Positions 2,230 through 63,032 of a stretch of 64,000 nucleotides of DNA are shown in pieces (position 1 is the stretch's first letter; every line of letters begins with the position of its first letter). A program made the position numbers and the translations under genes. This DNA is from Candidatus Zixiibacteriota bacterium. GTDB lineage: Bacteria > Zixibacteria > MSB-5A5 > GN15 > FEB-12. A model generated the notes under the pieces. It saw nothing but the letters and a program-made list of their open reading frames with translations, did not search any database and was not told the DNA's origin. The stretch lies in assembly GCA_034439475.1 (NCBI GenBank), contig JAWXAN010000035.1, positions 5,908 through 69,907 of the forward strand. Direction: 5' to 3'.

Positions 2230-2339
2230 ATTACAGGTCGTGAGAACCGGCGGACATGGGGTCGATCGGACGGACTAATTTACAACAAATATGGCGGTTG
2301 TAAAGTGGGGAATTTCTGTGGGCGGAGGGCTTGTCTGTG

Positions 2340-2514
2340 GTGTCGGGCGCCCTCGCCCGACACTATGGTTACAACAGTCAGGCGGGGGCGCCTGACTGCG
2401 CAGAAAAAGATGAACTGTAACCGTCGGGTCGTCCGCATTGGCGGACTCAGAAGCGGGACTCGCAATGGCCGGCGGACAATGTGTCGCCCAACCACAGTCC
2501 GCCGCGGCGGACTG
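2340..2514. repeat. three GC-rich palindromic hairpin modules (H1 2340-2363, H2 2375-2398, H3 2495-2514)
   Basis: H1 is GTGTCGGGCG-CCCT-CGCCCGACAC. H2 is CAGTCAGGCG-GGGG-CGCCTGACTG. H3 is CAGTCCGCC-GC-GGCGGACTG. The same three modules recur in inverted order at 39672-39767, and fragments occur at 3158-3180, 7247-7262 and 56582-56654. Confidence 0.85.
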
Positions 2515-2665
2515 ACCTACAAATCTCATCATACTCCGCCATCGGGTCTCTTTCCGTGGCTGGTGTACGTCCCACCACGCCTGCCCGCTGTGGCGGGGCG
2601 GACTTGAAAGCCTCGTGGACCAGCTACGAAATACGAAGCAAGTGACTTCGGTGCTTCAAAAACAG

Positions 2666-2751
2666 CGGAGAGACAGGGATTCGAACCCTGGATAGGGGTT
2701 ACCTATACACACTTTCCAGGCGTGCGCCTTCAACCACTCGGCCATCTCTCC
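2666..2751 (-). tRNA. tRNA-Ser(GGA)
   Basis: Minus strand sequence GGAGAGATGGCCGAGTGGTTGAAGGCG...CCAGGGTTCGAATCCCTGTCTCTCCG. The 7-bp acceptor stem is perfect, the anticodon loop is CU-GGA-AA, and there is a long variable arm. Confidence 0.92.
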
Positions 2752-3038
2752 GTCGGTCGATTCAGATCCCGCAGACGCGGGAACGGACAATGTACGATCT
2801 ACGACCAAAAAGGCAAGACGAAAGCGAAGGTGAGGGTTTGGCCGTAATTCTGTGGTGTCGGTTGGTTCTTGCGGATTCTTACAGACCGTCAGGTCATTCG
2901 CCGTGGGCGGACTTCGGAGGCCGCAGCACCTGTATCCTCGCTCACGCAACGATATTCCCAAGACCCGTCGGAACGGGTTAAAATTGGAAGAACAGATGTC
3001 AGTACCCAAGGGTCACTGACCTACGAATATCGGAGAAT

Positions 3039-3092
3039 ATGAGATTGCCGTCAGCCACGGCGGACGCCTCGGAAGTCGCTCCTCGCAACGAC
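3039..3092 (+). repeat. cassette repeat ATGAGATTGCC...CTCGCAACGAC (copy)
   Basis: Carries the conserved ends shared with copies at 10675-10727(+), 16083-16124(-), 32828-32863(+), 39620-39655(-), 42865-42913(+), 43142-43187(-) and 43299-43347(+). It is preceded by the flank module GACCTACGAATATCGGAGAAT. Confidence 0.75.
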
Positions 3093-3183
3093 GTGTTGTA
3101 AGATTCCTTATTACCCTCTACCTCTGGAAGAGGGCAGGGTGAGGGCGTATTCACTTCCATGGTGTCGGGCGTCTTCGCCTTTG

Positions 3184-4143
3184 CTATTTCGCGCCGTCAT
3201 TGCCGAAATAGAGATGTCTGTCCAACAGCTTCACAAACTCAGACCAGTTCCCTTTTTGTTGTCTCGCCCGGTAGCGGTCGATGGCATTCATTTTGGCATC
3301 GATTTCATCGCAATAATACAACAAAAATGCTTCAGCCATCTGAGGGCGGACCGGCGACTGATTTTGATATTCTCCCTGATGCGCGAGAAGCATGTGCCGC
3401 AATTTCATCAACAGTGAATCGGGGAAGGTTGGAATCTGCGCCGCACGCTGGCAGATCCAGTGATCGGCAAGGCAGATGTGACCGACAAGCCGGCCCTCAT
3501 CGGTGAAATCAATGACCATGTCGCTCGTATAGGTATCGATTTTGCCGGCATCGTGAAGCAGTCCGCCGAAAATCAGATAATCTTTATTGATATGCTCATA
3601 GCCAACCGCGACTCGAATCGCAAGTTCTGCAACCGAAGCCGAGTGCTCGGAGAGACCGCCGATATAGGCATGGTGCCATAGTTTTCCTGCCGGAGCGACA
3701 AGAAACTTATCCAGAAAATGCGGGTCCTGCCAGAACGCATTGACCAAAGTTTTGATATAGTTGTTTTCGATTTTTTCGGTAAGTGAGAAAAGCCGCGCCT
3801 GACGTTCCTCTCGCGATTGGCTTGAATGCGGCAGGATGTCTTCTATTTTGTATTCGTTTTCAAGCGCCAGCCGCATTTTACTGAGCGTTATCTGGCGTTT
3901 GTTATTGTATTCGCCGACCTGCCCGCGGACTTTGACCACCATGCTTTCTGTTAGCTCTGTAAGGGCAAATTGATCCGGCTCCCACAGGACGGCGTTGATT
4001 CGGCCAGTAGAATCACCCAACTCCAGAGAAACAAATTGCCCGCGGGTGAATTCTCTGACTTCGACTTTGCGAATGACAAAAAACCCGTCGATCTTGTCCT
4101 CAATTGAAAAATCTTTGATATGTCGTGCTTCCACAGTGGTCAT
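3184..4143 (-). CDS. OB-fold + HD-domain phosphohydrolase, YhaM-like 3'-5' exoribonuclease
   Basis: 319-aa ORF. The N-terminal part is OB-fold-like (FVSLELGDSTGRINAVLWE) and the C-terminal part is an HD domain (HS...GGLLHDAGK). Confidence 0.7.
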   Translation of the reverse strand: MTTVEARHIKDFSIEDKIDGFFVIRKVEVREFTRGQFVSLELGDSTGRINAVLWEPDQFALTELTESMVVKVRGQVGEYNNKRQITLSKMRLALENEYKIEDILPHSSQSREERQARLFSLTEKIENNYIKTLVNAFWQDPHFLDKFLVAPAGKLWHHAYIGGLSEHSASVAELAIRVAVGYEHINKDYLIFGGLLHDAGKIDTYTSDMVIDFTDEGRLVGHICLADHWICQRAAQIPTFPDSLLMKLRHMLLAHQGEYQNQSPVRPQMAEAFLLYYCDEIDAKMNAIDRYRARQQKGNWSEFVKLLDRHLYFGNDGAK

Positions 4144-4244
4144 AATATAACTAGTATGGCCAGAATCGCAAGAAAATCTGAAACACAGGGAGCTTACAAT
4201 AGGAATTGCCCAGCATTGTATAACTGCTATATTGTCAAACGCTT

Positions 4245-5573
4245 ATGAAAATACTAACTCGATATATAATCCGTGAGCACATCGCCCCGTTCTTGTTTGC
4301 CTTTTTTACGATAACTTTTCTGCTTGTCATCGACCATGTCCCGCGCATTATCGATCATGTCATAGATAAAAATCTCTCAATCTGGATCGCGCTGGAATTG
4401 GTGGGGCTGAACCTGGCCTGGATGCTCGCGCTTTCGATTCCCATGGCGGTGCTGGTTGCGACGCTTATGGCCTTCGGGCGACTGTCATCGGACTTTGAGA
4501 TCACTGCCGTCAAAGCCTCCGGGATAAATCTGATTCATGTACTTATGCCTCTGCTGGTTATCGGGGGCCTGCTGAGTTTTGGGATGGTTCAATTCAATGA
4601 CAAAGTCCTGCCCGATCTCAACCAAAAGGCCCGCATACTGTGGGGAGACATCGCTTCGATGCGTCCCACACTTATTTTTCGCTCCGGAACATTCATCACC
4701 GATGTCCCGGGATATCTTATCTTAATTGACAAAATTGACCATACGACATCGCGAGTCGAGGGCGTGCGCATCACCGAGACCAAAGTCCCGAGCACTCCGC
4801 GAATTATTGTGGCTGACTACGGCTTTTTGAAAACAGTCGACAATGGCGCAACCACAGAATTCACTCTCCATAACGGCGAATTGCACTCGCTTGACCTGAG
4901 CCAGCCGGAGAACTATCGCAAAATTGACTTTGAGACACAGGTCTTCAATGTAACGGGAACCGGCTCCGAGCTTCAACGCAGTGAAACAGAATATCGCTCT
5001 GACCGTGAGATGAATATCCAGGAATTAAAAGAGAATGTGGATCGAGCGACTTTGTCAATGGCTCCGAATAGCGAACAGATTGCGAGCTTTCTCAGAACCC
5101 GGCTCACCTATCTTTTTGCAGACACTTTCTCATACAGCTTCAAAGATTCTTTGACCGATTCGGCCGCGTATCAAATAGTCAAAACCGATGCGGCTGTCAT
5201 GGCCAATCAATTGCAAAAGAGCAATGACCAGATTTTCGCCCAATCGCAGGTCAGAAATAAGTATCAAATCGAACTGTACAAAAAATATTCGATTCCCGCG
5301 GCGACACTTGCCTTTATCCTGGTCGGAGCGCCTATCGGCATGCTCACACGCAAAGGCGGGATGGGGATCGCGATTGCCATTTCCATCGGGATTTTCATTC
5401 TCTATTGGGCGTTTCTTATAGGCGGAGAGGACATCGCCGATCGTGGCCTGCTCTCGCCCTTCTGGGCGATGTGGTCAGCGAATATTCTTCTCGGCGTGCT
5501 CGGGCTCTATTTAATCATCAAAGTAGTTACCGAACGTCCGATATTTTCATTTTTCAGGAAATCAAATCTTTAG
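4245..5573 (+). CDS. lptF: LPS export ABC transporter permease LptF (YjgP/YjgQ family)
   Basis: 442-aa ORF. It has the MKILTRYIIREH N-terminus typical of the LptF/G family, six predicted TM segments and a large periplasmic insert, and it is paired with lptG. Confidence 0.8.
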   Translation: MKILTRYIIREHIAPFLFAFFTITFLLVIDHVPRIIDHVIDKNLSIWIALELVGLNLAWMLALSIPMAVLVATLMAFGRLSSDFEITAVKASGINLIHVLMPLLVIGGLLSFGMVQFNDKVLPDLNQKARILWGDIASMRPTLIFRSGTFITDVPGYLILIDKIDHTTSRVEGVRITETKVPSTPRIIVADYGFLKTVDNGATTEFTLHNGELHSLDLSQPENYRKIDFETQVFNVTGTGSELQRSETEYRSDREMNIQELKENVDRATLSMAPNSEQIASFLRTRLTYLFADTFSYSFKDSLTDSAAYQIVKTDAAVMANQLQKSNDQIFAQSQVRNKYQIELYKKYSIPAATLAFILVGAPIGMLTRKGGMGIAIAISIGIFILYWAFLIGGEDIADRGLLSPFWAMWSANILLGVLGLYLIIKVVTERPIFSFFRKSNL

Positions 5574-5577
5574 TGTC

Positions 5578-6660
5578 ATGTTAAAAACACTCGATCGATA
5601 CCTGCTCACGTATTTTTTCCAGTCACTTTTTGTGGTTAGTCTTGCCGCTGGGCTTATGATTATTGTTATCAATATGGTCGATATGCTGAGATATTTTGTG
5701 GATAAAAACACTTCAATTCTGATTGTTCTTGAGTACTATCTTTATTTTGCAGGCTGGGTGATTAAATCTTTTCTGCCGATGTTTGTCATGCTTGCGAGTC
5801 TTTTCTCAGTTTCAATACTCGCTCGCCGACAAGAGATACTTGCGATGAAGGCATCGGGAATTTCTCTGTATCGAATCGCGCTTCCGTTTCTGGTCGTCGG
5901 GGCGCTCTTATCGGTCGGTCATTTTTACTACAATGAGTATATTTTCCCCGCAGCCAACAAAAAGCGGATCGAGATGAGAGAGTTTGTGATAGAAAACAAA
6001 TCCCGGTCGTCGCAAGCGTCGGTGCGTAATCTCTACCGCCAAATTAGTCCAGGGCATTTCTACACAATCAGTAATTACAATTCCGATCGAAACGAGGGAA
6101 CTGATTTCAAACTCTATAAAACCGAAAACAACACTCTCAGCCGGCTTATGACAGCCGAAAAAATTGTTTTTATCGATCTTCGCTGGCAGGCCATAGCTGG
6201 ATTTGTCCGAACCTTCGATAAATCCAAGCAGGAAACATTCGATACCTTTGACACTCTGGCTCTGACAGAAATAAGAGATTCTCCGTCCGAATTGGCCAAA
6301 CGGCTCGGCAAGCCGGAAGATATGAGTCTCGATGAGTTGAAGCATTATATCGAGGTTATGAAACGTACCGGGGGCCAGTACACCCATGAATCACTCGATC
6401 TCAAAATCAAATACGCGTTCCCGGTGACTTCGTTTGTCGTTGTGCTGATCTGCGTGCCGTTCGCGGCAAATCCGCGAAGGGGCGGCATTGCGGCCTCGTT
6501 TGCCGCGGGAGCGCTTATCGCGCTTTCTTATTTTGTGCTTTTTCGCATCAGCCAGTCGTCGGGCTACAATCAGAAGATTTCGGAAGATGTCGCAGCCTGG
6601 GGAATCAACGGCCTGTTTTTTCTGGTGGGCTTATTTCTGATGATTCGGGCGAGGAAATAG
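5578..6660 (+). CDS. lptG: LPS export ABC transporter permease LptG (YjgP/YjgQ family)
   Basis: 360-aa ORF with the MLKTLDRYLL N-terminus and the same topology as the LptF paralog 5 bp upstream. Confidence 0.8.
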   Translation: MLKTLDRYLLTYFFQSLFVVSLAAGLMIIVINMVDMLRYFVDKNTSILIVLEYYLYFAGWVIKSFLPMFVMLASLFSVSILARRQEILAMKASGISLYRIALPFLVVGALLSVGHFYYNEYIFPAANKKRIEMREFVIENKSRSSQASVRNLYRQISPGHFYTISNYNSDRNEGTDFKLYKTENNTLSRLMTAEKIVFIDLRWQAIAGFVRTFDKSKQETFDTFDTLALTEIRDSPSELAKRLGKPEDMSLDELKHYIEVMKRTGGQYTHESLDLKIKYAFPVTSFVVVLICVPFAANPRRGGIAASFAAGALIALSYFVLFRISQSSGYNQKISEDVAAWGINGLFFLVGLFLMIRARK

Positions 6661-7301: not shown

Positions 7302-7330
7302 TGTAGCCCACCCAACGGGTGGGTTTTTAT
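7302..7330 (+). terminator. terminator-shaped repeat module TGTAGCCCACCCAACGGGTGGGTTTTTAT
   Basis: CCCACCC/GGGTGGG stem followed by T5. An exact reverse-complement copy lies at 16243-16271. Confidence 0.6.
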
Positions 7331-7396
7331 ACTGTATGAACGGTTACATAGTTGACATATCTATCCAGGGACATGGTTGACACTTTTGTGGTTTTG

Positions 7397-7996
7397 TCAT
7401 CTTTCTTTCCGATGTCTCCATCGTCTCGGGTAATGTCGCAGACAGTATGTTTTCGTATCAAGCACGGCTAATCTAATCGGTCCAAACCAAATAGTCCAGC
7501 GGTCAGTCTCAGTCTCTTCCATGCCTATGTGCTGTCCGGCTAAGGTAGCGCTGAGATAAATTTGTCGTGATTTCCATCTGAGGTCGCCTTGTCCATGAAC
7601 CGTGCGAACCAGGAAATGGTCAGGATACTTTATCTCCGGCAGTCGTGACGGATATGTCCGCCGCGAGAGAGCAAAGAGACTCTGCGGCGTCTTCTGTCCT
7701 ATGCCTTCATGAGGACGGTCATTGTTATACTCATGGCGGAAGGCATCAAAAGCTCTCTGTTGTGCACGCAGGGTTGCCTTGGGCGGAGAAGCCGTCTGGG
7801 CTTTGAGCGTCCGATGCATGCGTTCATGACGGCCATTCTGAGCCGGGACTCCAGGAGCAATTCTCTCAGGGATAATACCCAGTCTGAGGAGCCAAATAGA
7901 TATCAGGGAGAGTCCGCCGACGGTCGTCGTCGCAAAGGGAGGACCATTATCACTTCGGATAGCCTCAGGCAGACCATACGAGCGGTGTGAGAACAA
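7397..7996 (-). pseudogene. IS481-family (rve/DDE) transposase, 5'-truncated remnant
   Basis: The 199-aa ORF contains only the C-terminal integrase core (SDNGPPF ... NGRHERMHRTLK ... YNNDRPHEGIG). The N-terminal HTH and the first catalytic Asp region are absent, and no in-frame continuation exists upstream. The truncation point abuts the hairpin repeat at 8013-8041. Confidence 0.75.
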
Positions 7997-8012
7997 AATG
8001 TTTCTTAGATAT

Positions 8013-8041
8013 GGTGCAGGCCAGAGACGGCCTGCACGAAG
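8013..8041 (+). repeat. hairpin module GGTGCAGGCCAGAGACGGCCTGCACGAAG (copy a)
   Basis: Identical 29-mers occur at 8013-8041, 10595-10623 and 32933-32961. A covarying inverted copy lies at 16182-16205. Confidence 0.9.
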
Positions 8042-8442
8042 TTTTTGGGTACCTCACTCCGCCACAGCGGGCTGGCACTGGCAATCTCAGGTTCTCTTAC
8101 CTTGGGTGCGAGACCGTTATCTCCTCTTTAACTACTGGTGCGCAAAAATTGAACATGCCAACTGTTACTTTAGTAGCTTTAATATCCCCGTCATAAGCCG
8201 ATACTATTCATCAATAGGCAGTGTATGAATAGACTTCAGAGACATATTCGACTTTTGCGCTACTCGCCGCTTCTTTGGCTGCGTTTTACCAGCCGACGGT
8301 ATGTCATTAAGGCTGCGATTGTGCGACGTATGACACTTCTACGGTTTGGTATGGCAAGACGCAAGCCTCTGTAGGCGGAACACAAGCCCGCTTCGCACTG
8401 GACAAACACAAACCTCTATTCCAACTTCGCCCGCAAAGGACT

Positions 8443-10594: not shown

Positions 10595-10623
10595 GGTGCA
10601 GGCCAGAGACGGCCTGCACGAAG
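10595..10623 (+). repeat. hairpin module GGTGCAGGCCAGAGACGGCCTGCACGAAG (copy b)
   Basis: Exact copy, located 5 nt after the stop codon of the 8443-10590 gene. Confidence 0.9.
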
Positions 10624-10915
10624 ATGAAGATGGATTCTCCACCACTGCGAACTGGAATAATTGCATTTCAAGAACTGAGATTGCCACGTCGCTCGCCCTC
10701 ATTAGCGGACTCACTCCTCGCAACGACACGTTTAGAGAATGTTGGTGCACCGGAACGTATACCAACCACTGAGTATCGTTCGTCGTGCGGGACGTCACGG
10801 TAGCCACTAAGTGACCGTCAGGTCATCCACCACTGGCGGACTTCGGTCGCCTCAGCACTCCTCCTCGTTGCCTCGGAGTGGGCAAGATCCGACGGAAGCG
10901 AGTCAGCTTGTATAA

Positions 10916-12702: not shown

Positions 12703-12933
12703 TTACTCCAGAATCTCAAGCACCGCCCGTTTTCCTGTACGGGCCGCGGCGGCGGCAAGTATCGTGCGGATCGATTTGGCCGTTTGACCGGCTTTGCCGA
12801 TAACTTTCCCGAGATCGCCATCGCCGACGCGAAGCTCGTAGATGGTTGTCCGCTCTCCTTCAATTTCATTCACGCTGACCTTATCCGGCTGGTCGACCAA
12901 TGCCCTGGCAATGAATTCAATGAATTCCTTCAT
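12703..12933 (-). CDS. KH domain RNA-binding protein (UPF0109/YlqC-like)
   Basis: 76 aa with the KH motif [18 protein letters not shown]. It occupies the conserved position between rpsP and rimM. Confidence 0.9.
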
Positions 12934-15953: not shown

Positions 15954-16181
15954 TGGTTAATAATTCCTGTTTCGATGCATTTTGATTATTCCAGTCCGGT
16001 TTAGCTTCTTTAAGTGGTTGGTGACGTTCCACTCCCGTCGGACTTGAGAGCCTCGTGCACCAGCTAATCCCCCAGTGCGTCGGCGCGAGGAGTGAGGCGA
16101 AGCCGAATGACGCGGCAATCTCAGTTCGTTTTTTCTTGTCTTTCCAGTGCGCCGAGGTGGAGTGTGGTACCCGAAATGTTC

Positions 16182-16205
16182 GTGCGGGGTGTCTCTGCCC
16201 CGCAC
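16182..16205 (-). repeat. covarying copy of the GTGCAGGCC-AGAGAC-GGCCTGCAC hairpin
   Basis: The minus strand reads GTGCGGGGCAGAGACACCCCGCAC. Base changes in the stem are compensated on the partner arm. The flanks (GATATGGTGC..., ...GCACGAA, GGGTACC-CACTCC) are homologous to 8008-8066. Confidence 0.8.
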
Positions 16206-16242
16206 CATATCTCATCAAACAGTCTGTCCTCATACGAGCCAT

Positions 16243-16271
16243 ATAAAAACCCACCCGTTGGGTGGGCTACA
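16243..16271 (-). repeat. terminator-shaped module (reverse complement of 7302-7330)
   Basis: ATAAAAACCCACCCGTTGGGTGGGCTACA on the plus strand. As a terminator it faces the minus strand, but no minus-strand gene lies upstream of it. Confidence 0.8.
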
Positions 16272-16481
16272 GGAATTAAAGAACTCAGCGTTCGTCCCAT
16301 CACGCCGGGTCTGCAGCGAACCGGCAATCTCATGCCTGCCCGCTGTGGTGGGTTCACTTCTCCTTCACTCCTTTGTCCCATAACAACAAGCAGTATAGCC
16401 AGTCAGGGCTCTCTCGGTAACTGATTTCATGGCTGGACGATCTTGAGAATCAAAGTCTGAGGGAGTTTTTTTGGATAATCC

Positions 16482-16509
16482 TTGCCTCATCATTTTGTCA
16501 GACTATATT
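16482..16509 (+). promoter_or_regulatory. candidate sigma70-like promoter of the menaquinone operon
   Basis: TTGCCT (16482-16487), a 16-nt spacer, then TATATT (16504-16509), about 75 nt upstream of ubiE/menG. Confidence 0.4.
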
Positions 16510-16583
16510 ATCAGCTTGGAACTGGAGGCGAAGCCAACTTGGTCGAAACCAGTTTATCATATTGCGGGTTATAGAAGGAGAAA

Positions 16584-28092: not shown

Positions 28093-28127
28093 ACGAGAGT
28101 CCAAAAGCTCAAAGATTTTGATTCAAA

Positions 28128-28157
28128 GAAAAGCTGGCGCGAAATCGCCAGCTTTTC
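28128..28157 (+). terminator. Rho-independent terminator after pepF (bidirectional shape)
   Basis: GAAAAGCTGGCG-cgaaat-CGCCAGCTTTTC followed by TTAT. The A and T runs on both sides would allow function in either direction. Confidence 0.7.
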
Positions 28158-32676: not shown

Positions 32677-32932
32677 TTTTTTTATAGGGGGGGGCGAATC
32701 AACATAAGAGTGTCTTTCATTTATGTCATTCCCGTGCCTGTCCGACGGGCGTAAAAACGGGAATCCAGTATTAATATTCGTGCGGTCCGCCGCGGCGGAC
32801 TGTCGCGCACCAAAGATAAAGACGAATATGAGATTGCCATGTCGCCTCGCTCCTCGCAACGACAGTGTCGGGAATGTCTGCATTAAGTTAGCGTATCCCC
32901 TCCGCCGCGAGGGTCGGTGCGATCTCCCTGTC

Positions 32933-32961
32933 GGTGCAGGCCAGAGACGGCCTGCACGAAG
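32933..32961 (+). repeat. hairpin module GGTGCAGGCCAGAGACGGCCTGCACGAAG (copy c)
   Basis: Exact third copy. It sits in a 527-bp repeat-mosaic region (32677-33203) that also holds a cassette copy at 32828-32863. Confidence 0.9.
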
Positions 32962-33203
32962 AAAAAATTGGGCAACCACGGAGGGTTGCCCCTACAGAAG
33001 CATAAGAGCGCCATTAATTATAGATTATGTAGGGGCAGGTCCCTGTGCCTGCCCTCTTTCTCAGGACGCCGGACAGCATACAAGGTAAATGGCACTCCGC
33101 CGTGGAGGGTCGCTTCGCTCCTCGCAACGACTTGCCGGTAGTGTCTGCTTGAATTTGCTTGCCCGCTTTTAGGCGGCCTTCTTACAATGAAAAAAAACGA
33201 ACT

Positions 33204-39482: not shown

Positions 39483-39671
39483 TTTTCGCGAACGAGTATT
39501 TGAATTGCTGAGTTAATTCGTAAGTCAGTCCCGCGGCGGCGGGGTATCCAGGGTAAATAGTCGTGCACTCCACCTCGCCGGAATGGGGTACCCGAATCCA
39601 CGCAGTCATTTCGCAGTGAGTCGTTGCGAGGAACGAAGTGACGAAGCAATCTCAGTTCTCCGATATTCGTA

Positions 39672-39767
39672 GGTCAGTCCGCCGCGGCGGACTGACCCCT
39701 TAAATTTTGTGCAGTCAGGCGCCCCCGCCTGACTGTCTAAAATGTGTCGGGTAGGGGCGCCCGACAC
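39672..39767. repeat. hairpin modules H3-H2-H1 in inverted order relative to 2340-2514
   Basis: GGTCAGTCCGCCGCGGCGGACTGACC (39672-39697, a perfect 26-nt palindrome), CAGTCAGGCG-CCCC-CGCCTGACTG (39712-39735) and GTGTCGGG-TAGGGGCG-CCCGACAC (39744-39767). Confidence 0.85.
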
Positions 39768-39799
39768 CACGTTGCACACACTCTGGCAGCGAATTTCGC

Positions 39800-39828
39800 T
39801 TGCTGGACTTCGAATGATGGCATATATA
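39800..39828 (+). promoter_or_regulatory. candidate promoter of the HEPN-NACHT gene
   Basis: TTGCTG (39800-39805), a 17-nt spacer, then TATATA (39823-39828). This favours the ATG at 39856 as the start rather than the upstream Met codons. Confidence 0.4.
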
Positions 39829-39855
39829 GCAGCGAGGAGTCATCCAAAATACAAT

Positions 39856-40140
39856 ATGACTGATATTAGTCCTAAGCTAAAAGGCAAGATTTCCGACTTT
39901 GTTGATACCAGCGTCCTACCTTTCTTAATCCAGAAATTCAATCCTTCTATCCCCACATTGTTGAAACAAGTTTTCGAGAATGACTATCTTTTAGACTCGT
40001 CTAAGCAGAAAAGCGATGCCGAGATCCGAATCCGAAAATTCGGCCACCTTGACCATGAAGATTTTCAGACTGTCCTAAAGATTGTCATTTTTCAGCAAGG
40101 AATTCAAGCTCGATCCGGCCGACATACAAGTTTTCTATGA
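39856..40140 (+). CDS. N-terminal half of a Swt1-like HEPN domain (5' fragment of a frameshifted HEPN-NACHT gene)
   Basis: This frame ends 48 nt after a T5 run (40088-40092). The sequence ...IRKFGHLDHEDFQTVLKIVIF continues naturally into SKEFKLDPADIQVFYDVKKFRDNALAH in the +1 frame. Confidence 0.55.
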   Translation: MTDISPKLKGKISDFVDTSVLPFLIQKFNPSIPTLLKQVFENDYLLDSSKQKSDAEIRIRKFGHLDHEDFQTVLKIVIFQQGIQARSGRHTSFL

Positions 40141-42823
40141 CGTAAAAAAATTCAGGGATAATGCGCTCGCACACAATCGCCGTCGCCAAGGCGGTACCCC
40201 TCGAAACGAAAGAGATTTTGCAACTGGTCTAGCCTCAATACCCAAAATGCTTGCAATTCTCTCAGCGCCAGAGGATTTAACTTCTAAGACTCATGCCTTA
40301 GAAGTGGAGTCCGTTCCTAGTGATATCAAGAAAACCCTTCAAGATAACTTCGATAGCGAGTCCCAACGGGCTGACTCTCCATCAGCCAAATCGGTCCACT
40401 CTAAGTCTTTCCAGTTTCCGCAAAACATTACTTGGCTGAGCCAAATTACTGAGAACCGCACTGGTTCCTTAACCGATAAGTTTGTCGGTCGCAAAAATCT
40501 GATGAACAAAATCGAAAACGAGGTGGTAGCCAGACACAAATCTTCATGGTTATTTTTTGCTCCACCTGGTTTTGGGAAATCTGCGATTGCGGCATCTTTG
40601 TTCGGGAGACTAAAACAACCACAGTGGCAACAAGGGCAACAAACAATTTATGTCGCCATTCATTATATCCTGTATAATGACAGCCTGACTCACGAGATCA
40701 TCAATATGGGGCTCAGCCTTGCAAAGCAATTGAGCGACTCATTGAATATGCCTATTTTTTCTCAAGAAGAACAACCACATCTCGATAGCGTTAACATTGC
40801 GCACTGGTTGTCTGACGTTCTCAAAACATTCTCTTCGCCGGAAAGAAAGTTTATCTTTATCGTCGATGGGATCGATGAAGCGCCTGATGGGACTAGATCA
40901 AAAATCATTGCCTTTCTCAAAACAATAGCCGAGTCGGGATTGGTCACTCCAGTAATTCTTTCGAGAGACATTAAAGAGTTCGACTGTGATCCGGATATGA
41001 CTTTAAGCTTCACAGATGAGGAACAACTAAAAGATATTTTTGATTACGTGAAACGTGAACTCGCTACCTGGCGTTCCGAAGAAATTCGAGAACAGTGGTC
41101 GAATGCAATTTCCAAGGCAACAGATGGCCAATTTATATATGCAAAGTACGTTGTTATTGGTGTTTTGAATGATATTTATCTAAACGTAGAGGAAATCGAG
41201 CAACTGCCAAAAAAATTGAAAGACCTGTATAAACGGACTCTTGATGACTTGGGGAAGTCGCACAGCGATGGAACAGTGTTTCTTGATCATATTGTTCCAT
41301 TTTTGTCGACATTGCTCGTATCCGAAGGTAGCGTATGGTTAGATGTTTTGGTGGCCATACTCGAACAAAGAGGCATAGATGCTCGGTATACGCAATCGGT
41401 TATTAGCAAACTAAGGCAATGGTTGCGGGATTATCCCGATTCACCGTCACACCAAATCGAGCTTTGCCACAAGACGCTCCACGACTTCTTGTTATTGGAT
41501 GAAGTGATCAGTTCAGAGCTTACCAAGGCACATTTAGAGTGGGCAAAGTACTTTATTGAGAATCTTGAGGAACAGGATCATTACGATCAGGTTGTCACAC
41601 ACATTCAAAAGGGCGGCAGTTCCGACCTTCTCATGGAATTACTTGGGAAGACAGATTACCTGAAAAATATTGCCATCGGCAAAAAACTTAGACCCTCGCA
41701 CGAAGACGAAGAAGAAGAAGATCGAGTGTGTTACCCCGATGAGACGGTCGATTACTTTCTTCATTTTTGGCTCCCAGCTATCGAACATCCTATATTTGGA
41801 GAGTATGGAGGAATCCCCTCGTTGGCTGGAAGAGGTGTTGACTGCTCATCACTTGTGCTTCGCTTCAGTTTATTTGATAAATTGTTTCGGTATTTGGACA
41901 AGATACCTGGAAGTATAATTAATTTGGCACAAATAAATCCCAGGCATTGTGAAGACATCCTTCCCTTGATGGGAAAACGACAACCTGAATACTTGGCACT
42001 TAGAGAATTGGGCGTTATTAACCTACCCTATTCTTTTGAGCAAACGCTCTTGAATCCGCGTCCCGGACAAGGTCTAATTTCAGGGGTGGATCGTTCTTTA
42101 AGAGGCACATCCGAACTGGTAACTGAGATTAGAAATATTGAGCCGGTAGAGTCAGAGTCCGCCAGTGCCCAGTTCTATCAACAGTACCACCAGTTGAGCT
42201 TGCTTCATAATCTGGTTTATGCACCTGACTGCATCGAATATTCCGCACTCGTTAGAACAATTACTCGAGAGGTAATTGGATCTATTATAGGGTGCATCAA
42301 TTCGGATGAAGATCCGATATTATATAAGCAATTCTATCACGTCCATCGCGGTGAAATGGTATTGAACTCGGATATTTTTCAAGACTACTGGTATTTTGTT
42401 TTGAAACGATGGCCAGATTTTTTCTTTGAGATATTGACGAATTTCGAACAACTTAGCGCCAGTGGCAGAATCCGCACTCGCAGACGGAGTTGTGATAGAA
42501 AGTGGAATGAGTACGAGGCTTTGAAAGTCATAAGCTGGGCGGTCGTATGCTACCTACCAAAACCCGAATTGAAGGACGCCATCGTGCGTCTTTCAAACAT
42601 TTTTCCTCCGTCGAACGCGTATGATAAAATATTCTCAAGTGGTCTCGATATCTTTCGGTATTGTTTTGAAGTAAGCGACGACGAATTATTCGAAACTATA
42701 GACCGACTAGCGCCGGGATTCAGCGATGTTGCAAGAGTACAATCCTCGAGGATGTGGTCAAAACTTCTTGAAGGAGAAAGGACAGACGTTGACTTCGTAG
42801 TACTGAGAGATTCGCTCAAGTAG
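40082..42823 (+). CDS. NACHT/STAND P-loop NTPase with N-terminal HEPN (R-x5-H) motif and about 500-aa helical C-terminal region
   Basis: 913-aa ORF that begins at a TTG. It carries the HEPN motif KKFRDNALAH, the STAND lead-in FVGRKNLMNKIE, Walker A APPGFGKSAIA and a NACHT-type Walker B FIFIVDGIDEA. The C-terminal half is unassigned. It is low in G+C (hand counts of about 30-48% per 60-nt line). Confidence 0.75.
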   Translation: MSFFSKEFKLDPADIQVFYDVKKFRDNALAHNRRRQGGTPRNERDFATGLASIPKMLAILSAPEDLTSKTHALEVESVPSDIKKTLQDNFDSESQRADSPSAKSVHSKSFQFPQNITWLSQITENRTGSLTDKFVGRKNLMNKIENEVVARHKSSWLFFAPPGFGKSAIAASLFGRLKQPQWQQGQQTIYVAIHYILYNDSLTHEIINMGLSLAKQLSDSLNMPIFSQEEQPHLDSVNIAHWLSDVLKTFSSPERKFIFIVDGIDEAPDGTRSKIIAFLKTIAESGLVTPVILSRDIKEFDCDPDMTLSFTDEEQLKDIFDYVKRELATWRSEEIREQWSNAISKATDGQFIYAKYVVIGVLNDIYLNVEEIEQLPKKLKDLYKRTLDDLGKSHSDGTVFLDHIVPFLSTLLVSEGSVWLDVLVAILEQRGIDARYTQSVISKLRQWLRDYPDSPSHQIELCHKTLHDFLLLDEVISSELTKAHLEWAKYFIENLEEQDHYDQVVTHIQKGGSSDLLMELLGKTDYLKNIAIGKKLRPSHEDEEEEDRVCYPDETVDYFLHFWLPAIEHPIFGEYGGIPSLAGRGVDCSSLVLRFSLFDKLFRYLDKIPGSIINLAQINPRHCEDILPLMGKRQPEYLALRELGVINLPYSFEQTLLNPRPGQGLISGVDRSLRGTSELVTEIRNIEPVESESASAQFYQQYHQLSLLHNLVYAPDCIEYSALVRTITREVIGSIIGCINSDEDPILYKQFYHVHRGEMVLNSDIFQDYWYFVLKRWPDFFFEILTNFEQLSASGRIRTRRRSCDRKWNEYEALKVISWAVVCYLPKPELKDAIVRLSNIFPPSNAYDKIFSSGLDIFRYCFEVSDDELFETIDRLAPGFSDVARVQSSRMWSKLLEGERTDVDFVVLRDSLK

Positions 42824-42864
42824 TTCTGATTTTATATCGAGCGCCGAGGTGATCAAATCCAAAT

Positions 42865-42913
42865 ATGAGATTGCCACGCCACGTCTAAGAAGTCGCGGCC
42901 CGCAATGACGGGG
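42865..42913 (+). repeat. cassette repeat copy 1 (ATGAGATTGCCACG...CGCAATGACGGGG)
   Basis: 46 of 49 positions are identical to 43299-43347. Confidence 0.85.
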
Positions 42914-43141
42914 CTGCCTGACCTACAATTATCGGAGAAGATGGATTCTCCGCCACGGCGGACTGGAATGACATGTGATAAAATTTCTTTGTCATCGCAC
43001 AAAGCGTCTCGACATTCGTTGGGACGGTGGGTATCAATATCGGTGCGCGACCGGGACGTCCCGCACGAAGACTAACACTGTCTGCCCACTTTCCCGCCGT
43101 GGCCGAGTGTGGTACAAGATTACGAGTGTAGTGTTTCAGTA

Positions 43142-43187
43142 CGTCATTGCGAGTTTCACTTTCTGAAGTGAAACGTGGCAATCTCAT
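43142..43187 (-). repeat. cassette repeat, inverted copy with a different internal hairpin
   Basis: The minus strand reads ATGAGATTGCCACG-GTTTCACTTCAGAAAGTGAAAC-TCGCAATGACG. The ends are the same as in the other copies, but the core is an unrelated perfect hairpin. Confidence 0.85.
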
Positions 43188-43298
43188 GTTCTCCGATATT
43201 CGTAGATCATACCTTCCGGTGCCCCTATATCCGTTCTTCGTGCGGGACGTCCCGGTCGCGCACCAAAGTTAAAGCGACGCTCACGGCAGCAGACTAAC

Positions 43299-43347
43299 AT
43301 GAGATTGCCACGCCACGTCTAAGAAGCCGCGGCTCGCAATGACGGGT
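43299..43347 (+). repeat. cassette repeat copy 3
   Basis: Direct repeat of 42865-42913. Its core contains the perfect palindrome AGCCGCGGCT. Confidence 0.85.
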
Positions 43348-43360
43348 TGAGGATTTAGTT

Positions 43361-43388
43361 TTAACAAGAGCAATCTGAGATGTATAAT
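43361..43388 (+). promoter_or_regulatory. candidate promoter of the 254-aa nuclease-like gene
   Basis: TTAACA (43361-43366), a 16-nt spacer, then TATAAT (43383-43388). An RBS AAGGGAGA precedes the TTG start at 43414. Confidence 0.5.
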
Positions 43389-43413
43389 ATGCATAGAATA
43401 AAGGGAGACAATT

Positions 43414-55571: not shown

Positions 55572-56489
55572 ATGGGAACCCTGTCACCAAAAATATTCGA
55601 ATGGCTATTCCGACTCGCCCGCCCCGAGCAGTGGATTAAAAACGGGCTGGTTATCATTCCATTAGTCTTCGCTGGCGAGGCTGGCTCGGTTTACAAAATC
55701 GAACGAATCATAGCCGCCTTTGTGATTTTTTGCCTGCTCTCGTCGTCGATGTATACTATCAACGACTTGGTCGATCGCGACAAAGACAAAATCCATCCGC
55801 TCAAAAAAAGCCGTCCGATTGCCTCTGGAAAAGTGAGTCCGACCCAGGCTGTGGTCTTTGCCTCACTTCTCATGGCCGCTGGTCTGGCTGGAGCGTGGCT
55901 GTTGGGAAGAAGTTTTTTTGTCATAGCAGGCACATTTGTACTTCTCAATCTCGCCTACTCGTTCGCGCTCAAAAATGTTGTCATTCTGGATGCCATGAGC
56001 ATTGCCTTCAGTTTTGTCCTTCGAACTTTTGCAGGCGCGGCGGCTATTGATGTTGTCGCTTCAAAGTGGATGCTTATAAACACGTTTCTGCTGGCCCTCT
56101 TTTTGGTTTTTGGCAAACGAAGACACGAGCTTGTTATGTTGGACAAAATAGCCACCGCTCATCGGGCCATTCTGGGAAAATACTCGTCGTATTTATTAGA
56201 CCAGCTTATTGCCGTCACAACTCCGTCGGTGGTGGTGATGTATATGCTCTATTCTTTTTCAAGCGAGGTCTCAGAGAAGTTGGGGACTGAGAACCTTTAT
56301 TTGACAATTCCGTTTGTTGTCTATGGAATTTTCAGGTATCTCTATTTGATTCACAAAGAAGACAAGGGGGGTTCACCGACGACAGTGTTGTTTGGCGACC
56401 GCCCAATTTTGTTCACTGTTATTCTTTGGATGATTACTGTTTTTGTTGTTCTGTATACGAGCCCGGGGAATCTCAGTTCCCCGATATAA
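55572..56489 (+). CDS. UbiA-family prenyl-phosphate transferase, decaprenyl-phosphate phosphoribosyltransferase-like
   Basis: 305 aa, polytopic, with the NDLVDRDKDKIHPLKKSRPIASG motif. Confidence 0.65.
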   Translation: MGTLSPKIFEWLFRLARPEQWIKNGLVIIPLVFAGEAGSVYKIERIIAAFVIFCLLSSSMYTINDLVDRDKDKIHPLKKSRPIASGKVSPTQAVVFASLLMAAGLAGAWLLGRSFFVIAGTFVLLNLAYSFALKNVVILDAMSIAFSFVLRTFAGAAAIDVVASKWMLINTFLLALFLVFGKRRHELVMLDKIATAHRAILGKYSSYLLDQLIAVTTPSVVVMYMLYSFSSEVSEKLGTENLYLTIPFVVYGIFRYLYLIHKEDKGGSPTTVLFGDRPILFTVILWMITVFVVLYTSPGNLSSPI

Positions 56490-56747
56490 GTAGATCATAC
56501 CTTCTTAGGTCTCGACATCTTCTCTTCATCTTGTAGCACGAGTCATTCTTATGCCCCGCGAGTCTTTATTCCTGAAGAATACGCCCTCGCCCGACATTAT
56601 GATTGAACTGTCAGGCGAGGGCTTTCAAGTCCGCCGAAGGAGGGCGCCTGACAGCACTGATAACCTTAACTGAGGTTGCTTCGCCTGCCCGCCGTGGAGG
56701 GTCACTTCGTTCCTCGAAACGACTCACCCTTTGGTGACCTGCAATAC

Positions 56748-61338: not shown

Positions 61339-61503
61339 ATTGTCGATTTAGTGGCTGGCGTACGTCCCATCACGCCTGCCCGCACCGCCACAGTGGGCCG
61401 GCGTTGGGGAACAGACTGTGCGTCACGTACCGGAGTGCCTTACGACAATGAAGGGAATACCTTACCGACCCTTTTGGCCCCCGGCATGTTTCGATATTAC
61501 GTA

Positions 61504-61872
61504 CTACTCGAAAGCGCGAGGCTCTTCGTATAGATTAAATATGAATCCAAACGGATCTACCAGATAACAACAGCCCCCCTTACCTTCCCACCTAACTTCC
61601 CGGCATCCGTACTCTGTCAATTCGACACGCGCCTCTTCAAGGTCTGGCACAAGAAACTCCATGATAACATTTCGCGATGGACGGTTATCGATAAAGAGGC
61701 GGGTCGGATGGGCATTAAATTCGGCGCTCTCGGGATGTTGGTGAACCAAGGGCAAACCGAGCACATCCCTGTAAAATGTTATCATAGCCTCAGAATCCGG
61801 CGATTCAAGGCACAGACAGCGGCTAAATTTATACGGCATCGTGAAACGTTCCTTCCAGATCGTTGGTATCAT
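61504..61872 (-). CDS. VOC family (glyoxalase/bleomycin-resistance fold) protein
   Basis: 122 aa with the ITFYRDVLGL motif and a betaalphabetabetabeta layout. The start may be the internal Met (MPYKF). Confidence 0.65.
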   Translation of the reverse strand: MIPTIWKERFTMPYKFSRCLCLESPDSEAMITFYRDVLGLPLVHQHPESAEFNAHPTRLFIDNRPSRNVIMEFLVPDLEEARVELTEYGCREVRWEGKGGCCYLVDPFGFIFNLYEEPRAFE

Positions 61873-62052
61873 TTATAGTGCAGAATTGCCTGCTAATGTC
61901 GAAACTAAGGGCTCATGAGCAAAGCTGTCAAGTGTTAGAATTGAGCTAAAGTAAATGGCCGTGGTTGGTTAAAAAAATAGTTCATTGAGGTTGACAAGAC
62001 GCACTTCCGTGAGCATTTTTCTTGTCTAAACAGACCTAAAGGAGGAGATAGA

Positions 62053-62712
62053 ATGAAACGAACAATTATTATTGTTTTATGCGCGGCTTTTGCCCTCAGC
62101 AATGTCAGTTGCGGCTGGAGCAAAAAAGCCAAAGGGGCGGCAATCGGAGCCACATCCGGAGCCGTAATCGGCGGCGTCATCGGAAATAAAGCGGGCAATA
62201 CCGCTGTCGGCGCTATTATCGGCGCGGCCATCGGCGGAGCGGCCGGGGCGTATATCGGAAATTATATGGACAATCAGGCCGAAGAAATGCGCCGCGATCT
62301 CGAAGGCGCAACCGTCACACGTGTCGGCGAAGGTATCAAAATCACATTTGCCTCGGGAATCTTATTCGATGTCGACAAATGGAGTTTGCAGCCTGCTGGG
62401 GTCGAAAATATCGCACACTTGGCGGCCATTCTTAATAAATATCCTGACACTGAAGTTTTAGTTGAAGGACATACCGATTCCGATGGCTCCGAAGAGCACA
62501 ATTTGGATCTCTCGCAGAACCGCGCCAACTCTGCAAAGAATTCGCTTGTGAGTAACGGCGTCTCGCCGGGACGTTTGACAACAATGGCGTATGGCGAAGT
62601 TCAACCCATAGCGGACAATGTGAGTGATGAAGGCAAGCAAGCGAACCGCCGTGTGGAAATCGCTGTCTTTGCCAATGATAAGTTAAAGAAGGCGGCTCAA
62701 GCCGGAGGATGA
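62053..62712 (+). CDS. OmpA-family lipoprotein with glycine-zipper segment
   Basis: 219 aa with lipobox LSNVS-C-G, a Gly-zipper GAAIGATSGAVIGGVIGNKAGNTAVGAIIGAAIGGAAGAYIG and an OmpA_C domain (GHTDSDGSEEHNLDLSQNRA...NRRVEI). Confidence 0.88.
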   Translation: MKRTIIIVLCAAFALSNVSCGWSKKAKGAAIGATSGAVIGGVIGNKAGNTAVGAIIGAAIGGAAGAYIGNYMDNQAEEMRRDLEGATVTRVGEGIKITFASGILFDVDKWSLQPAGVENIAHLAAILNKYPDTEVLVEGHTDSDGSEEHNLDLSQNRANSAKNSLVSNGVSPGRLTTMAYGEVQPIADNVSDEGKQANRRVEIAVFANDKLKKAAQAGG

Positions 62713-62767
62713 TTTCTTTTTTGAAGATAAAAAGAGATTTTTGAATGACAATATTTTAATCAGATCG

Positions 62768-62798
62768 GGCGGGAGAGTTTTTCTTCCGCCTTTTTTTT
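62768..62798 (+). terminator. Rho-independent terminator
   Basis: GGCGGGAG-agttttt-CTTCCGCC followed by T8. Confidence 0.7.
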
Positions 62799-62875
62799 GT
62801 TCTTTTTGTGGATGTCGCGGCGGGTCTTGGTCACTTCGAGCGAACAGCGAGGAGTGAGTGTGACCTGACGGTCAC

Positions 62876-63009
62876 ATAATTGGCGGGTTCGCGGACGGAC
62901 CCGCCCTACTTTGGTCAAGACTCGCGGGGCTGGCGCGATCATATAATCGGCGGGTTCGCAGACCCGCCACAGCGGGCAGGCTTCCTCGCCCTACTTAGGA
63001 CAAGACTCG
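62876..63009 (+). repeat. local duplicated unit ATAAT(T/C)GGCGGGTTCGC...CCCGCC...CTACTT(T/A)GG(T/A)CAAGACTCG
   Basis: Unit 1 is 62876-62924 and unit 2 is 62943-63009. Unit 2 carries an inserted CACAGCGGGCAGGC module also found at 2581-2596, 8066-8080 and 16333-16348. The units are preceded by the palindrome GTGACC-TGAC-GGTCAC (62860-62875). Confidence 0.75.
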
Positions 63010-63032
63010 ATCCGCAGCAGCGGACACCTCCG

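Follow-up and report, generated by a model that had tools for sequence, protein, structure and literature searches.

Repetitive extragenic palindromic (REP) sequences are imperfect palindromes of 20-40 nt that lie outside genes and carry a 5' tetranucleotide of the GT[AG]G type. In the described systems, including the REPs and bacterial interspersed mosaic elements (BIMEs) of E. coli with TnpA_REP and the Pseudomonas inverted doublets that fold into long hairpins (REP doublets forming hairpins, REPINs), the gene of a REP-associated tyrosine transposase (RAYT) is bracketed by its own repeats, and several families coexist and cluster into mosaics (PMC2817692, PMC3116915, PMC8266576). Two REP superfamilies, defined by the tags GTAG and CGTC, the latter with a TGTC variant, are distinguished in the accessible part of the survey by Di Nocera et al. 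(2013, PMC3733652). A 64,000-nt stretch of an uncultured Zixibacterium (GCA_034439475.1, contig JAWXAN010000035.1, positions 5,908 to 69,907; hereafter the window) holds intergenic regions filled with short hairpin modules. These regions are very probably BIME-like mosaic clusters of several coexisting REP families. To our knowledge, no REP system has been described from Zixibacteria. The phyla named in the accessible text of PMC3733652 do not include it.

Four families can be told apart: (a) GTGG/GTGC-tagged inverted doublets, which would be the cognate repeat of a RAYT of the Y1/HUH type encoded elsewhere in the genome; (b) several GTAG-tagged hairpins; (c) (C/T)GTC-tagged units, comprising a canonical ATTCC…GGAAT-CCA type and a pan-bacterial ATTGCGAG…GCAAT cassette; and (d) untagged, lineage-specific hairpins and linker blocks, which appear to travel with the tagged families. 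GTAG-type, CGTC-type and untagged hairpin families thus stand side by side in the same spacers of one organism. About 8% of the window is accounted for in this way, by REP/BIME-type repeats with an identifiable RAYT, and the system is an ordinary one of that type rather than an exotic one.

Repeat regions, REP tags and the RAYT gene

The window belongs to the 128.9-kb contig Ga0163152_10000116 (JGI microbial-mat metagenome 3300020213), has a GC content of about 49% throughout, and was found in five other assemblies at 99.5-100% identity, including the metagenome-assembled genome (MAG) GCA_964602185.1. The best named relatives of its Ffh protein (77-81% identity) belong almost without exception to 'Candidatus Zixiibacteriota' or 'candidate division Zixibacteria', which identifies the host as a Zixibacterium; a planctomycete host, suggested by the appearance of the repeats, was rejected on these grounds. 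An earlier note, made from the letters of the window, had described 14 intergenic repeat regions of about 5 kb, or 8% of the DNA. They sum to 5,201 nt, with GC contents of 0.48-0.62, and self-BLASTN placed essentially all repeated segments of the window within them; the only repeats outside were two tRNA-Ser genes, a palindrome at 31342-31361 and an internal duplication in ABC-F. The regions do not consist of repeats throughout: parts such as 8100-8442 and 16354-16583 contain no recurring module.

Each module recurs far above chance, in both orientations and between genes only; with a conservative gene model, none lies within a gene of the window. Compared with dinucleotide shuffles, the cassette pattern GAGATTGC-N10-40-GCAAYGAC was counted 7 times against 0.01 expected, the linker CTACGAATATCGGAGAA with up to 3 mismatches 5 times against 0.25, and the lineage hairpin GGTGC-hairpin-GCACGAA 8 times against 0.20. 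Every module quoted in the note was recovered at its coordinates, among them GTGTCGGGCG-N4-CGCCCGACAC (2340 and 39744), CAGTCAGGCG-N4-CGCCTGACTG (2375 and 39712), CAGTCCGCCGCGGCGGACTG (2495 and 39675), three copies of GTGCAGGCCAGAGACGGCCTGCAC, the hairpin at 43042, 43237 and 32777, the block at 2556, 61351 and 36720, and the block at 2599 and 16039. All-against-all comparison of the regions confirmed that module order and orientation vary from one to the next. Not all modules are independent units, some being sub-parts of larger composites such as a 69-nt unit present at 8007-8075 and 16144-16212. Others are nested: 21 nt are inserted in the loop of the second hairpin of the 56580-56660 doublet, a GTCCGCCGCGGCGGAC palindrome lies in the loop of the 32777-32811 hairpin, and the composite at 2556-2626 equals that at 16013-16066 plus a small hairpin.

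With the stricter gene model, repeats are present in 5 of 7 convergent spacers, or in 6 when the weaker pattern matches at 28093-28361 are included, in 4 of 14 co-directional spacers and in only 2 of 9 divergent ones. This placement agrees with the spacer-type bias reported for REPs in the accessible part of PMC3733652. Intergenic mosaics built from a small library of palindromes, with alternating orientation and recurring linkers, are also known from enterobacterial BIMEs and from Neisseria (dRS3/Correia), although the sequences are unrelated and the module diversity is greater here.

The modules are not confined to the window. In a metagenome collection, the lineage hairpin pattern was found in 36 stretches, none overlapping the window, from the same series of microbial-mat samples and on many different long contigs. 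These loci were chosen by that one module only, and all other module families recur in them far above the shuffled control; the linker CTACGAATATCGGAGAA has 31 copies on other contigs and the module GCCTGCCCGC-TGTG-GCGGG has 46. None of 185,579 species-representative genomes matched the lineage hairpin pattern, so that the library extends over the whole genome of this organism and is, for these modules, specific to its lineage. Extragenic dispersal in many copies, as expected of REPs, was seen on dozens of the organism's contigs sampled.

The hairpin character of the modules and their tags were evident from a census of perfect hairpins (stem of at least 7 bp, loop of 2-8 nt) in about 340 kb of the organism's DNA, with flanking tetranucleotides tabulated. 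Among 226 hairpins, the commonest flanks were TGTC (24) and GTAG (18), against about 1.8 expected per tetranucleotide; the two most enriched flanks are thus the tags of the superfamilies described in the accessible part of PMC3733652. Six GTAG-tagged hairpins lie in the window. Units of the form TGTC-ATTCCNGC-N4-GCNGGAAT-CCA, with at least 35 distinct copies in the organism and abundant on other contigs, match the CGTC units as the text of that survey describes them, with the tag in its TGTC variant, a stem of 8 bp whose first bases are AT, a loop of 4 nt and a terminal CCA. The survey gives such units stems of 8-9 bp, loops of 4-5 nt and a short unpaired tail. A terminal tag of the CGTC/TGTC/CCTC kind is also found on the cassette, which begins (C)GTC.

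As DNA, the main modules fold as short palindromic hairpins with z-scores of -3.7 to -7.4, for example -7.4 for the doublet at 2334-2405 and -6.1 for the GGTGCAGGCC hairpin; with standard parameters, the 43040-43072 variant and the bare 34-nt cassette fold no better than shuffles. The 44 distinct copies of the GGTGC…GCACGAA family show compensatory stem changes, e.g., from GGCC/GGCC to GACC/GGTC. Inverted doublets were found at 2337-2401 and 39709-39770 in the window, and ten further distinct ones elsewhere. The GT[AG]G foot of REPs is carried by the GTAG hairpins; the two arms of the RAYT-linked family bear GTGG and GTGC.

The absence of a RAYT from the window, stated in the earlier note, proved correct, and no Y1 transposase is encoded there. 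The genome search that it had proposed returned one RAYT on another contig of the same MAG. A tblastn search with RAYT sequences from the supplement of PMC3733652, in its accessible part, gave a truncated match at the edge of one metagenome locus (L277; E down to 8e-13). The exact product was then recovered by protein search; among its homologues, which have the Pfam Y1_Tnp domain, are some that JGI calls RayT. The contigs that encode it include one of MAG GCA_964602185.1, which also holds the window sequence. A regular-expression screen for HUH and Y motifs among the ORFs (open reading frames) of the metagenome loci yielded false candidates only, and a Pfam scan of 41 HUH-containing ORFs had no Y1_Tnp among its top 25 families; the gene was found by tblastn alone because the locus had cut it. 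The complete ORF encodes 157 aa (L286 5830-6303), with the HUH motif NHFH and the Y motif YIHFNPVKA. It scores 101.6 bits against the NCBIfam model NF047646 'REP-associated tyrosine transposase' (curated cut-off 80) and matches Pfam Y1_Tnp, as against only 21 bits with the IS200 transposase model (cut-off 55).

Doublets lie on both sides of the RAYT gene, at L286 5698-5765, 65 nt before the start, and at 6317-6385, 14 nt past the stop. Their sequence, GTGG-TGTCGGGCG…CGCCCGAyAC-TAAGATGAAGA-CTGTCAGGCGAGGGCGCCTGACwG, is that of the inverted doublets at 2337-2401 and 39709-39770 in the window. A RAYT gene bracketed by the window's own doublet is a classical REPtron as described in the RAYT literature. 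In unrelated metagenomes, three RAYT homologues (59-67% identity) also have GTGG-TGTC[GA]G… hairpins on their flanks, with stems of different sequence that remain self-complementary. A REPtron with co-varying GTGG-tagged REPs is thereby added from Zixibacteria.

The earlier note had regarded the system as analogous to REPs but unrelated in sequence. Its REP/BIME-like modular organization was confirmed; the lack of relationship was not, as the GTAG/GTGG and (C/T)GTC tags are those of the superfamilies in the accessible part of PMC3733652 and a RAYT is flanked by the window's doublet. Differences from the studied systems are the RAYT-linked tag, which is GTGG/GTGC and not GTAG, the same orientation of the doublets on both RAYT flanks, the mixing of many more unrelated modules than in classical BIMEs, and the host phylum. 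IS200/IS605 elements and the class 3 TnpA_Y1 'REPtron-like' genes (PMC6006769) share a Y1 HUH fold acting on subterminal DNA hairpins. Unlike IS200/IS605, the protein scores as a RAYT, with neither tnpB nor insertion sequence (IS) ends; unlike class 3, which has Y----Q and a CnGA foot, its Y motif is YIHFNP.

The doublet at 2337..2401 (plus strand; DNA fold -28.9 kcal/mol, z = -7.4) consists of a first arm GTGG-TGTCGGGCG-CCCT-CGCCCGACA at 2337-2362 (plus), a spacer of 11-13 nt, and an inverted partner CAGTCAGGCG-GGGG-CGCCTGACTG-CGC at 2376-2401 with its tag on the minus strand. The matching doublet at 39709..39770 (minus) has the opposite orientation, its arms being GTG-CAGTCAGGCG… at 39709-39734 and GTGG-TGTCGGGCG… on the minus strand at 39745-39770. 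A degenerate copy at 56580..56660 (plus; 2348-2389 versus 56582-56622, 86%) has a truncated first hairpin, and its second (CTGTCAGGCGAGGGC…GCGCCTGACAG) carries the 21-nt nested loop insertion mentioned above.

The RAYT gene lies between lepB and a DpnI-like restriction endonuclease gene with an unannotated 111-aa ORF (L286 4485-6303), in housekeeping surroundings of ftsH, folP, lepA, lepB and hemN. At one homologous RAYT (L292, Ga0315551_10000010, flanks of 1201-1680), the REPs use the loop GTCTCT/AGAGAC. The untagged GGTGC…AGAGAC…GCACGAA family of the window has the same loop, a hint that it may derive from the RAYT-linked one.

A cassette shared by many bacteria

The cassette of family (c) measures 28-34 nt. 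Its canonical form on the (C)GTC strand is GTC(A/G)TTGCGAGGA-N-GACG(N)(R)GCAATCTC, which pairs as GTC-ATTGC-GA-G-GA-[hairpin]-GA-C-GNR-GCAAT-CTC; the other strand reads GAGATTGC…CGCAAYGAC. The pattern GAGATTGC-N12-30-TCCTCGCAAYGAC gave at least 120 matches in IMG/VR and at least 120 in species-representative genomes. By record title, the matches listed span about twenty phylum-level groups, including Chloroflexota, Bacillota, Patescibacteria, Bacteroidota (with cultured Chryseobacterium and Ochrovirga), Planctomycetota, Armatimonadota, Elusimicrobiota, Atribacterota, Acidobacteriota, Gemmatimonadota, Nitrospirota, Myxococcota and Pseudomonadota. The cassette also occurs on complete plasmids of Methylosinus, Methylocystis, Novosphingobium, Halomonas, Legionella and several Nostocales, where it is never annotated. 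Among the matches listed, a core of about 25 nt is almost invariant across phyla, plasmids and phage contigs, and the flanks are unrelated between matches. The earlier note had likened translations of its modules to short spurious proteins annotated in many lineages, which holds for this one module.

The middle of the cassette is hypervariable, with 150 distinct versions. Near-perfect palindromes make up 51 of the 101 apex versions of at least 9 nt, against 1.1 in shuffles. The 288 pairs counted in 55 clean apical hairpins include 269 Watson-Crick, 5 G·T and 3 A·C pairs, with neither wobble excess nor strand asymmetry. The minimal apices are GCGAAGC (38), GCGCAGC (27), GCAAAGC (13), GCGTAGC (11), GCGGAGC (8) and GCGNNAGC forms, most of which correspond to the GCGNAGC/GCGNNAGC 'mini-hairpin DNA' whose stability is not predicted by standard nearest-neighbour parameters (Kimoto & Hirao 2026, PMC13037366). 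The bare 34-mer folds no better than shuffles (z = +0.4) because such stability escapes these parameters. The known mini-hairpins are single origin sites of phages and plasmids, whereas those of the cassette are dispersed chromosomal repeats. The cassette can be pictured as a predicted rod interrupted by internal loops rich in G·A, with a mini-hairpin of the GCGNAGC type or a hypervariable perfect palindrome at its tip. Since wobble pairs are nearly absent and the triloops are of DNA type, its structure points to the DNA rather than the RNA level. A K-turn-like RNA reading of the internal loops was dropped for the same features, near-absent wobble pairs and an apex of the DNA-type GNA triloop. 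Watson-Crick apical palindromes that are ever different would point to a templated fold-back origin.

Several properties recall the CGTC units in the accessible part of PMC3733652, in which head-to-head (tag-outward) dimers, often heterodimers, predominate and no transposase is linked. An inverted partner, usually the short form, lies 10-40 nt downstream in 87 of 261 non-redundant cassette copies and upstream in 12 only. In Alphaproteobacteria, the cassette CGTCATTGCGAGCGnnGCGAAGCAATCCA is followed by a spacer and then by TGGATTGCTTCGTCGCTTCGCTCCTCGCAATGACG; the pair is a head-to-head heterodimer of a long and a short form, with CGTC tags outside and CCA tails, in the architecture of CGTC REPs. 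The tail is CCA there and CTC in the Zixibacterium. The stem agrees in part, as it begins with AT; unlike that of the CGTC units, the basal stem of the ATTGCGAG cassette has only 5 Watson-Crick pairs before the G·A-rich loops and the variable apex. Head-to-head dimers of the cassette are represented in the window by the pair 43143-43185 and 43301-43343, and no transposase gene is linked to it. Judged by the listed peptides, with the consensus figures left out of the comparison, the cassette is none of the families CGTC-1 to CGTC-4 of PMC3733652. Its peptides VIARSEATKQS and SLRGAKRRSNL are missing from the accessible lists for these families (VIPAKAGI, VIAGLDPAIH, VIPWLDHGI, VILDGRNIEF…), and the strings AKQS, TKQS, RSNP, LAMT and ARND occur nowhere in the accessible supplements of that survey.

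No recurrent neighbour of the cassette emerged across phyla from BLASTP clustering of the genome loci. Among the 130 ORFs flanking it, 176 Pfam families are represented, the most frequent in 4 ORFs at most, and no transposase is enriched; the recurrent families beside it on viral contigs are related phage structural genes. Its strand and spacer-type placement across phyla is like the background (46/11/11 versus 212/73/59 spacers; strand 29 versus 17). Rfam searches of four cassette-bearing loci at E<=1 and literature searches with its DNA and peptide strings returned nothing relevant, the latter only unrelated primer matches. Tentatively, and with more doubt than confidence, the cassette might be an uncatalogued pan-bacterial single-stranded DNA (ssDNA) element: either a fifth and wider CGTC-type REP family mobilized in trans, for which the enzyme may be a host or HUH one, or a priming or nicking signal, for which conserved replication machinery may be the reader. 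An element whose core is nearly the same in about twenty phyla among the matches listed, and for which no linked enzyme was found, makes concretely testable the question of 2013, how CGTC-type REPs arise and spread. The conserved G·A loops and the GCGNAGC apex provide a defined ssDNA ligand, and the cassette is the part of the system that deserves following up.

Seven copies lie in the window. The canonical 34-nt copy GTCGTTGCGAGGAACGAAGTGACGAAGCAATCTC at 39620..39653 (plus, in (C)GTC orientation) is one base off copies in Gammaproteobacteria and Dehalococcoidia MAGs, and a second canonical 34-nt copy occupies 32830..32863 (minus). Enlarged apical inserts are found at 3041..3092 (minus), where the insert holds a GCCACGGCGG hairpin, and at 10677..10727 (minus). 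A short-type cassette with an inserted hairpin at 42867..42909 (minus) shows 96% identity to that at 43301-43343. The short-type copy at 43143..43185 (plus; z = -3.7) has a perfect-hairpin cap, GTTTCACTT-TCTG-AAGTGAAAC, and its inverted, tag-outward partner follows 115 nt downstream at 43301..43343 (minus), with other modules in the spacer.

In a group of related phage contigs (IMG/VR L012 3845-5330 and L007 7010-7442), small 'MSKVK…' genes have the cassette directly before their ribosome-binding site. A portal-like ORF of that group also runs through it (…SARNDSPFVSLRGAEHRSNL…), which suggests tolerated in-frame insertions.

Proposed origin and spread of the mosaic clusters

Modules kept primarily for a function in the transcript, as 3'-end stabilizers, terminators, processing sites or small RNAs, would explain their enrichment downstream of genes in convergent and co-directional spacers, the T-run after one GTAG hairpin (7303-7331), and a first stem pair of the window cassettes that is G·T on the CGTC strand only; REPs are also stated to stabilize mRNA in the accessible part of PMC3733652. 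Such a role is nevertheless unlikely to be the primary one. The modules stand in both orientations relative to the flanking genes, the 55 clean cassette apices show neither a wobble excess nor a difference between strands, and the apices GCGNAGC/GCGNNAGC are a DNA-specific motif (PMC13037366). Rfam models matched no module in the window at gathering score, where the check proposed in the earlier note returned only tRNAs, and none at E<=1 on four cassette-bearing loci. A family that flanks a RAYT also points to processing at the DNA level. This last point, together with REP tags on the hairpins, equally speaks against decayed pieces of one or a few longer miniature inverted-repeat transposable elements (MITEs) from an IS, e.g., that of the rve_3 remnant at 7397-7996. 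The fixed order in which some modules recur, as composites of 60-110 nt, the integrase-core remnant adjoining one cluster and an IS110 transposase on another contig would be in keeping with this origin, which is highly unlikely all the same: no composite has terminal inverted repeats and target-site duplications at its ends, the modules also occur alone, in other orders or inside one another, and the cassette stands alone with unrelated flanks in about twenty phyla among the matches listed. The earlier note had already argued that no single MITE was copied intact, and derivation of all modules from one intact MITE or IS finds no such boundaries around any composite.

For the ATTGCGAG…GCAAT cassette by itself, an ssDNA signal for a universal replication enzyme, of the primase or ssi kind, might have been spread by horizontal transfer without being a RAYT-type REP. 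The nearly invariant core in about twenty phyla, plasmids and phage contigs among the matches listed would accord with it, as would the lack of a linked gene family beside the cassette and an apex motif described at phage G4-type and RSF1010 ssiA priming sites (PMC13037366). It is a distinctly improbable account, drawn purely from structural analogy, and the cassette resembles the CGTC REPs in the accessible part of PMC3733652 in its dispersal to random housekeeping spacers, its tag-outward inverted pairing (87 downstream versus 12 upstream) and its (C)GTC…AAT-C(C/T)N frame; its spacer-type placement is like background. An assembly artefact or a chimeric contig has a practically negligible probability, since at least six samples or assemblies yielded the same sequence independently, at 99.5-100% identity, and modules lie on dozens of other long contigs. 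A CRISPR array was also considered and rejected: the copies lie hundreds of bases to tens of kb apart in mixed orientations, and the proteins scanned in the window contain no Cas-type domains, in line with the earlier note.

By analogy with the studied RAYT/REP systems, the coexisting REP families of the mosaic clusters would fold as hairpins in ssDNA at replication forks, and the RAYT would recognize the hairpin and its 5' tetranucleotide, cut and rejoin it, and so spread and maintain its own family. New copies would insert beside or inside older ones and persist only where harmless, mostly downstream of genes; the spacers would therefore fill with shuffled modules in both orientations. What the sequences show directly is the repeats with their hairpins and tags, their extragenic, genome-wide distribution and the REPtron; actual mobilization, an enzyme for each of the families (b) to (d) and any function in RNA are presumed.

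Some observations weigh against this account of mosaic REP clusters. Copies of the locus from different samples are 99.5-100% identical, and no module insertion polymorphism was seen among them. Between samples there are just two indels, one of 46 nt and one of 39 nt; both fall within coding sequence, flanked by short direct repeats, and have nothing to do with the modules. Because the sampled population is clonal and lacks module polymorphism, mobility is inferred, not observed. Only one RAYT turned up, the family cognate to it is in the minority among the modules, with two intact doublets and a degenerate third in the window, and no other Y1 transposase was seen in the roughly 360 kb scanned. 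A clear GTAG or CGTC tag is missing from several blocks and from GGTGC…GCACGAA, the commonest of the lineage hairpins, and no enzyme was identified for them. The CGTC-type units have no associated transposase in the accessible literature (PMC3733652), and neighbour clustering and Pfam analysis of flanking ORFs gave none here either.

Further modules and neighbouring genes

The lineage-specific hairpin GGTGC-AGGCC-AGAGAC-GGCCT-GCACGAA lies at 8013..8040 (plus; z = -6.1), with identical copies at 10595..10622 and 32933..32960 (both plus). A stem variant, GGTGCGGGGC-AGAGAC-ACCCCGCACGAA, occurs at 16179..16206 (minus), and the variant GGTGCGCGAC-CGGGAC-GTCCCGCACGAA at 43042..43069 (plus) forms an inverted pair, 30/30 complementary, with its partner at 43237..43264 (minus). 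The member with the GTCCGCCGCGGCGGAC palindrome nested in its loop is that at 32777..32811 (minus).

Among the GTAG-tagged REPs, GTAG-GTCAGTCCGCC-GC-GGCGGACTGACC at 39669..39697 (plus; z = -5.05 for 39666-39700) is found again at 2495..2520 (minus; …GGACTG-ACCTAC). A terminator-like hairpin, GTAG-CCCACCC-AACG-GGTGGG followed by a T-run, at 7303..7323 (plus), has an inverted copy (…GGGTGGG-CTAC; 30/30) at 16250..16270 (minus). Two different GTAG-tagged hairpins form a tail-to-tail pair at 32970..33054 (no strand assigned; z = -3.8), with the layout GGGCAACC…GGTTGCCC-CTAC, spacer, GTAG-GGGCAGG…CCTGCCC. The CGTC-1-like TGTC-ATTCC…GAAT-CCA type is represented by two units with enlarged stems, at 42937..42970 and 10626..10658 (both minus; 91% over 33 nt). 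Elsewhere in the organism (L277 2447-2482), a perfect palindrome with a 16-bp stem, TGTCATTCCAGTCCGC-TGTG-GCGGACTGGAATGACA, bears the TGTC tag at both ends and fuses an ATTCC-type unit with a GTCCGC…GCGGAC hairpin.

The linker block CTACGAATATCGGAGAA joins a …GACCTAC hairpin foot to a cassette at 3021..3037 (plus); its other copies are at 39656-39672, 43189-43205 and 56477-56493 (minus) and at 42923-42939 (plus). The palindrome GTGACC-N4-GGTCAC lies at 62859..62876 (no strand assigned; z = -3.8), with further copies at 2884-2896, 10811-10825, 28245-28260 and 36919-36932. The composite at 2556..2626 (plus; z = -2.3) consists of GTGGCTGGTGTACGTCCCAC…, a nested GCCTGCCCGC-TGTG-GCGGG hairpin and then GGACTTGAAAGCCTCGTGGACCAGCTAC; its ends pair, and its minus strand begins GTAG. 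The copy without the nested hairpin is at 16013-16066, with partial copies at 61351-61383 and 36720-36752. The small hairpin module GCCTGCCCGC-TGTG-GCGGG itself occurs at 62964..62981 (minus) and at 2579-2597, 16331-16352, 28171-28192, 56680-56701, 8059-8076, 36736-36753, 42950-42967 and 61385-61402.

Two tRNA-Ser genes with CGA and GGA anticodons lie on the same strand at 2144-2751, separated by a 435-nt spacer filled with REP modules, and a spurious 214-aa ORF (1963-2607) traverses a tRNA and repeats. A greedy gene model (ORFs of at least 75 aa), under which modules had seemed to lie in genes because spurious ORFs arise from the repeats, was dropped for the stricter one. Short ORFs crossing these repeats should be left out by gene callers.

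A 199-aa ORF with a TTG start at 7397-7996 (minus), which was not called by the JGI gene caller, contains an rve_3 integrase-core domain; repeat clusters adjoin it on both sides, and it is probably an IS remnant. A 913-aa STAND-type NTPase with NPHP3_N/AAA_16 domains is encoded at 40082-42823, in the stretch of lowest GC content (0.43, 40001-42000), and the two densest repeat clusters, at 39483-40081 and 42824-43413, flank its gene. This gene may be a horizontally acquired, defence-like one framed by REP clusters.

At 12825-12870, in a KH-domain (KhpA-like) gene, 46 nt are missing from the MAG copy (L004), which has 10 further mismatches. Every JGI copy agrees with the window, and the MAG copy represents a strain variant or else an error of its assembly. 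Two loci from two samples, L272 and L273, are 99.8% identical except for a repeat-rich stretch of 1 kb (4821-5826 versus 5578-6583) with only 96% identity, 37 mismatches and 2 gaps, which may reflect local recombination or a second strain.

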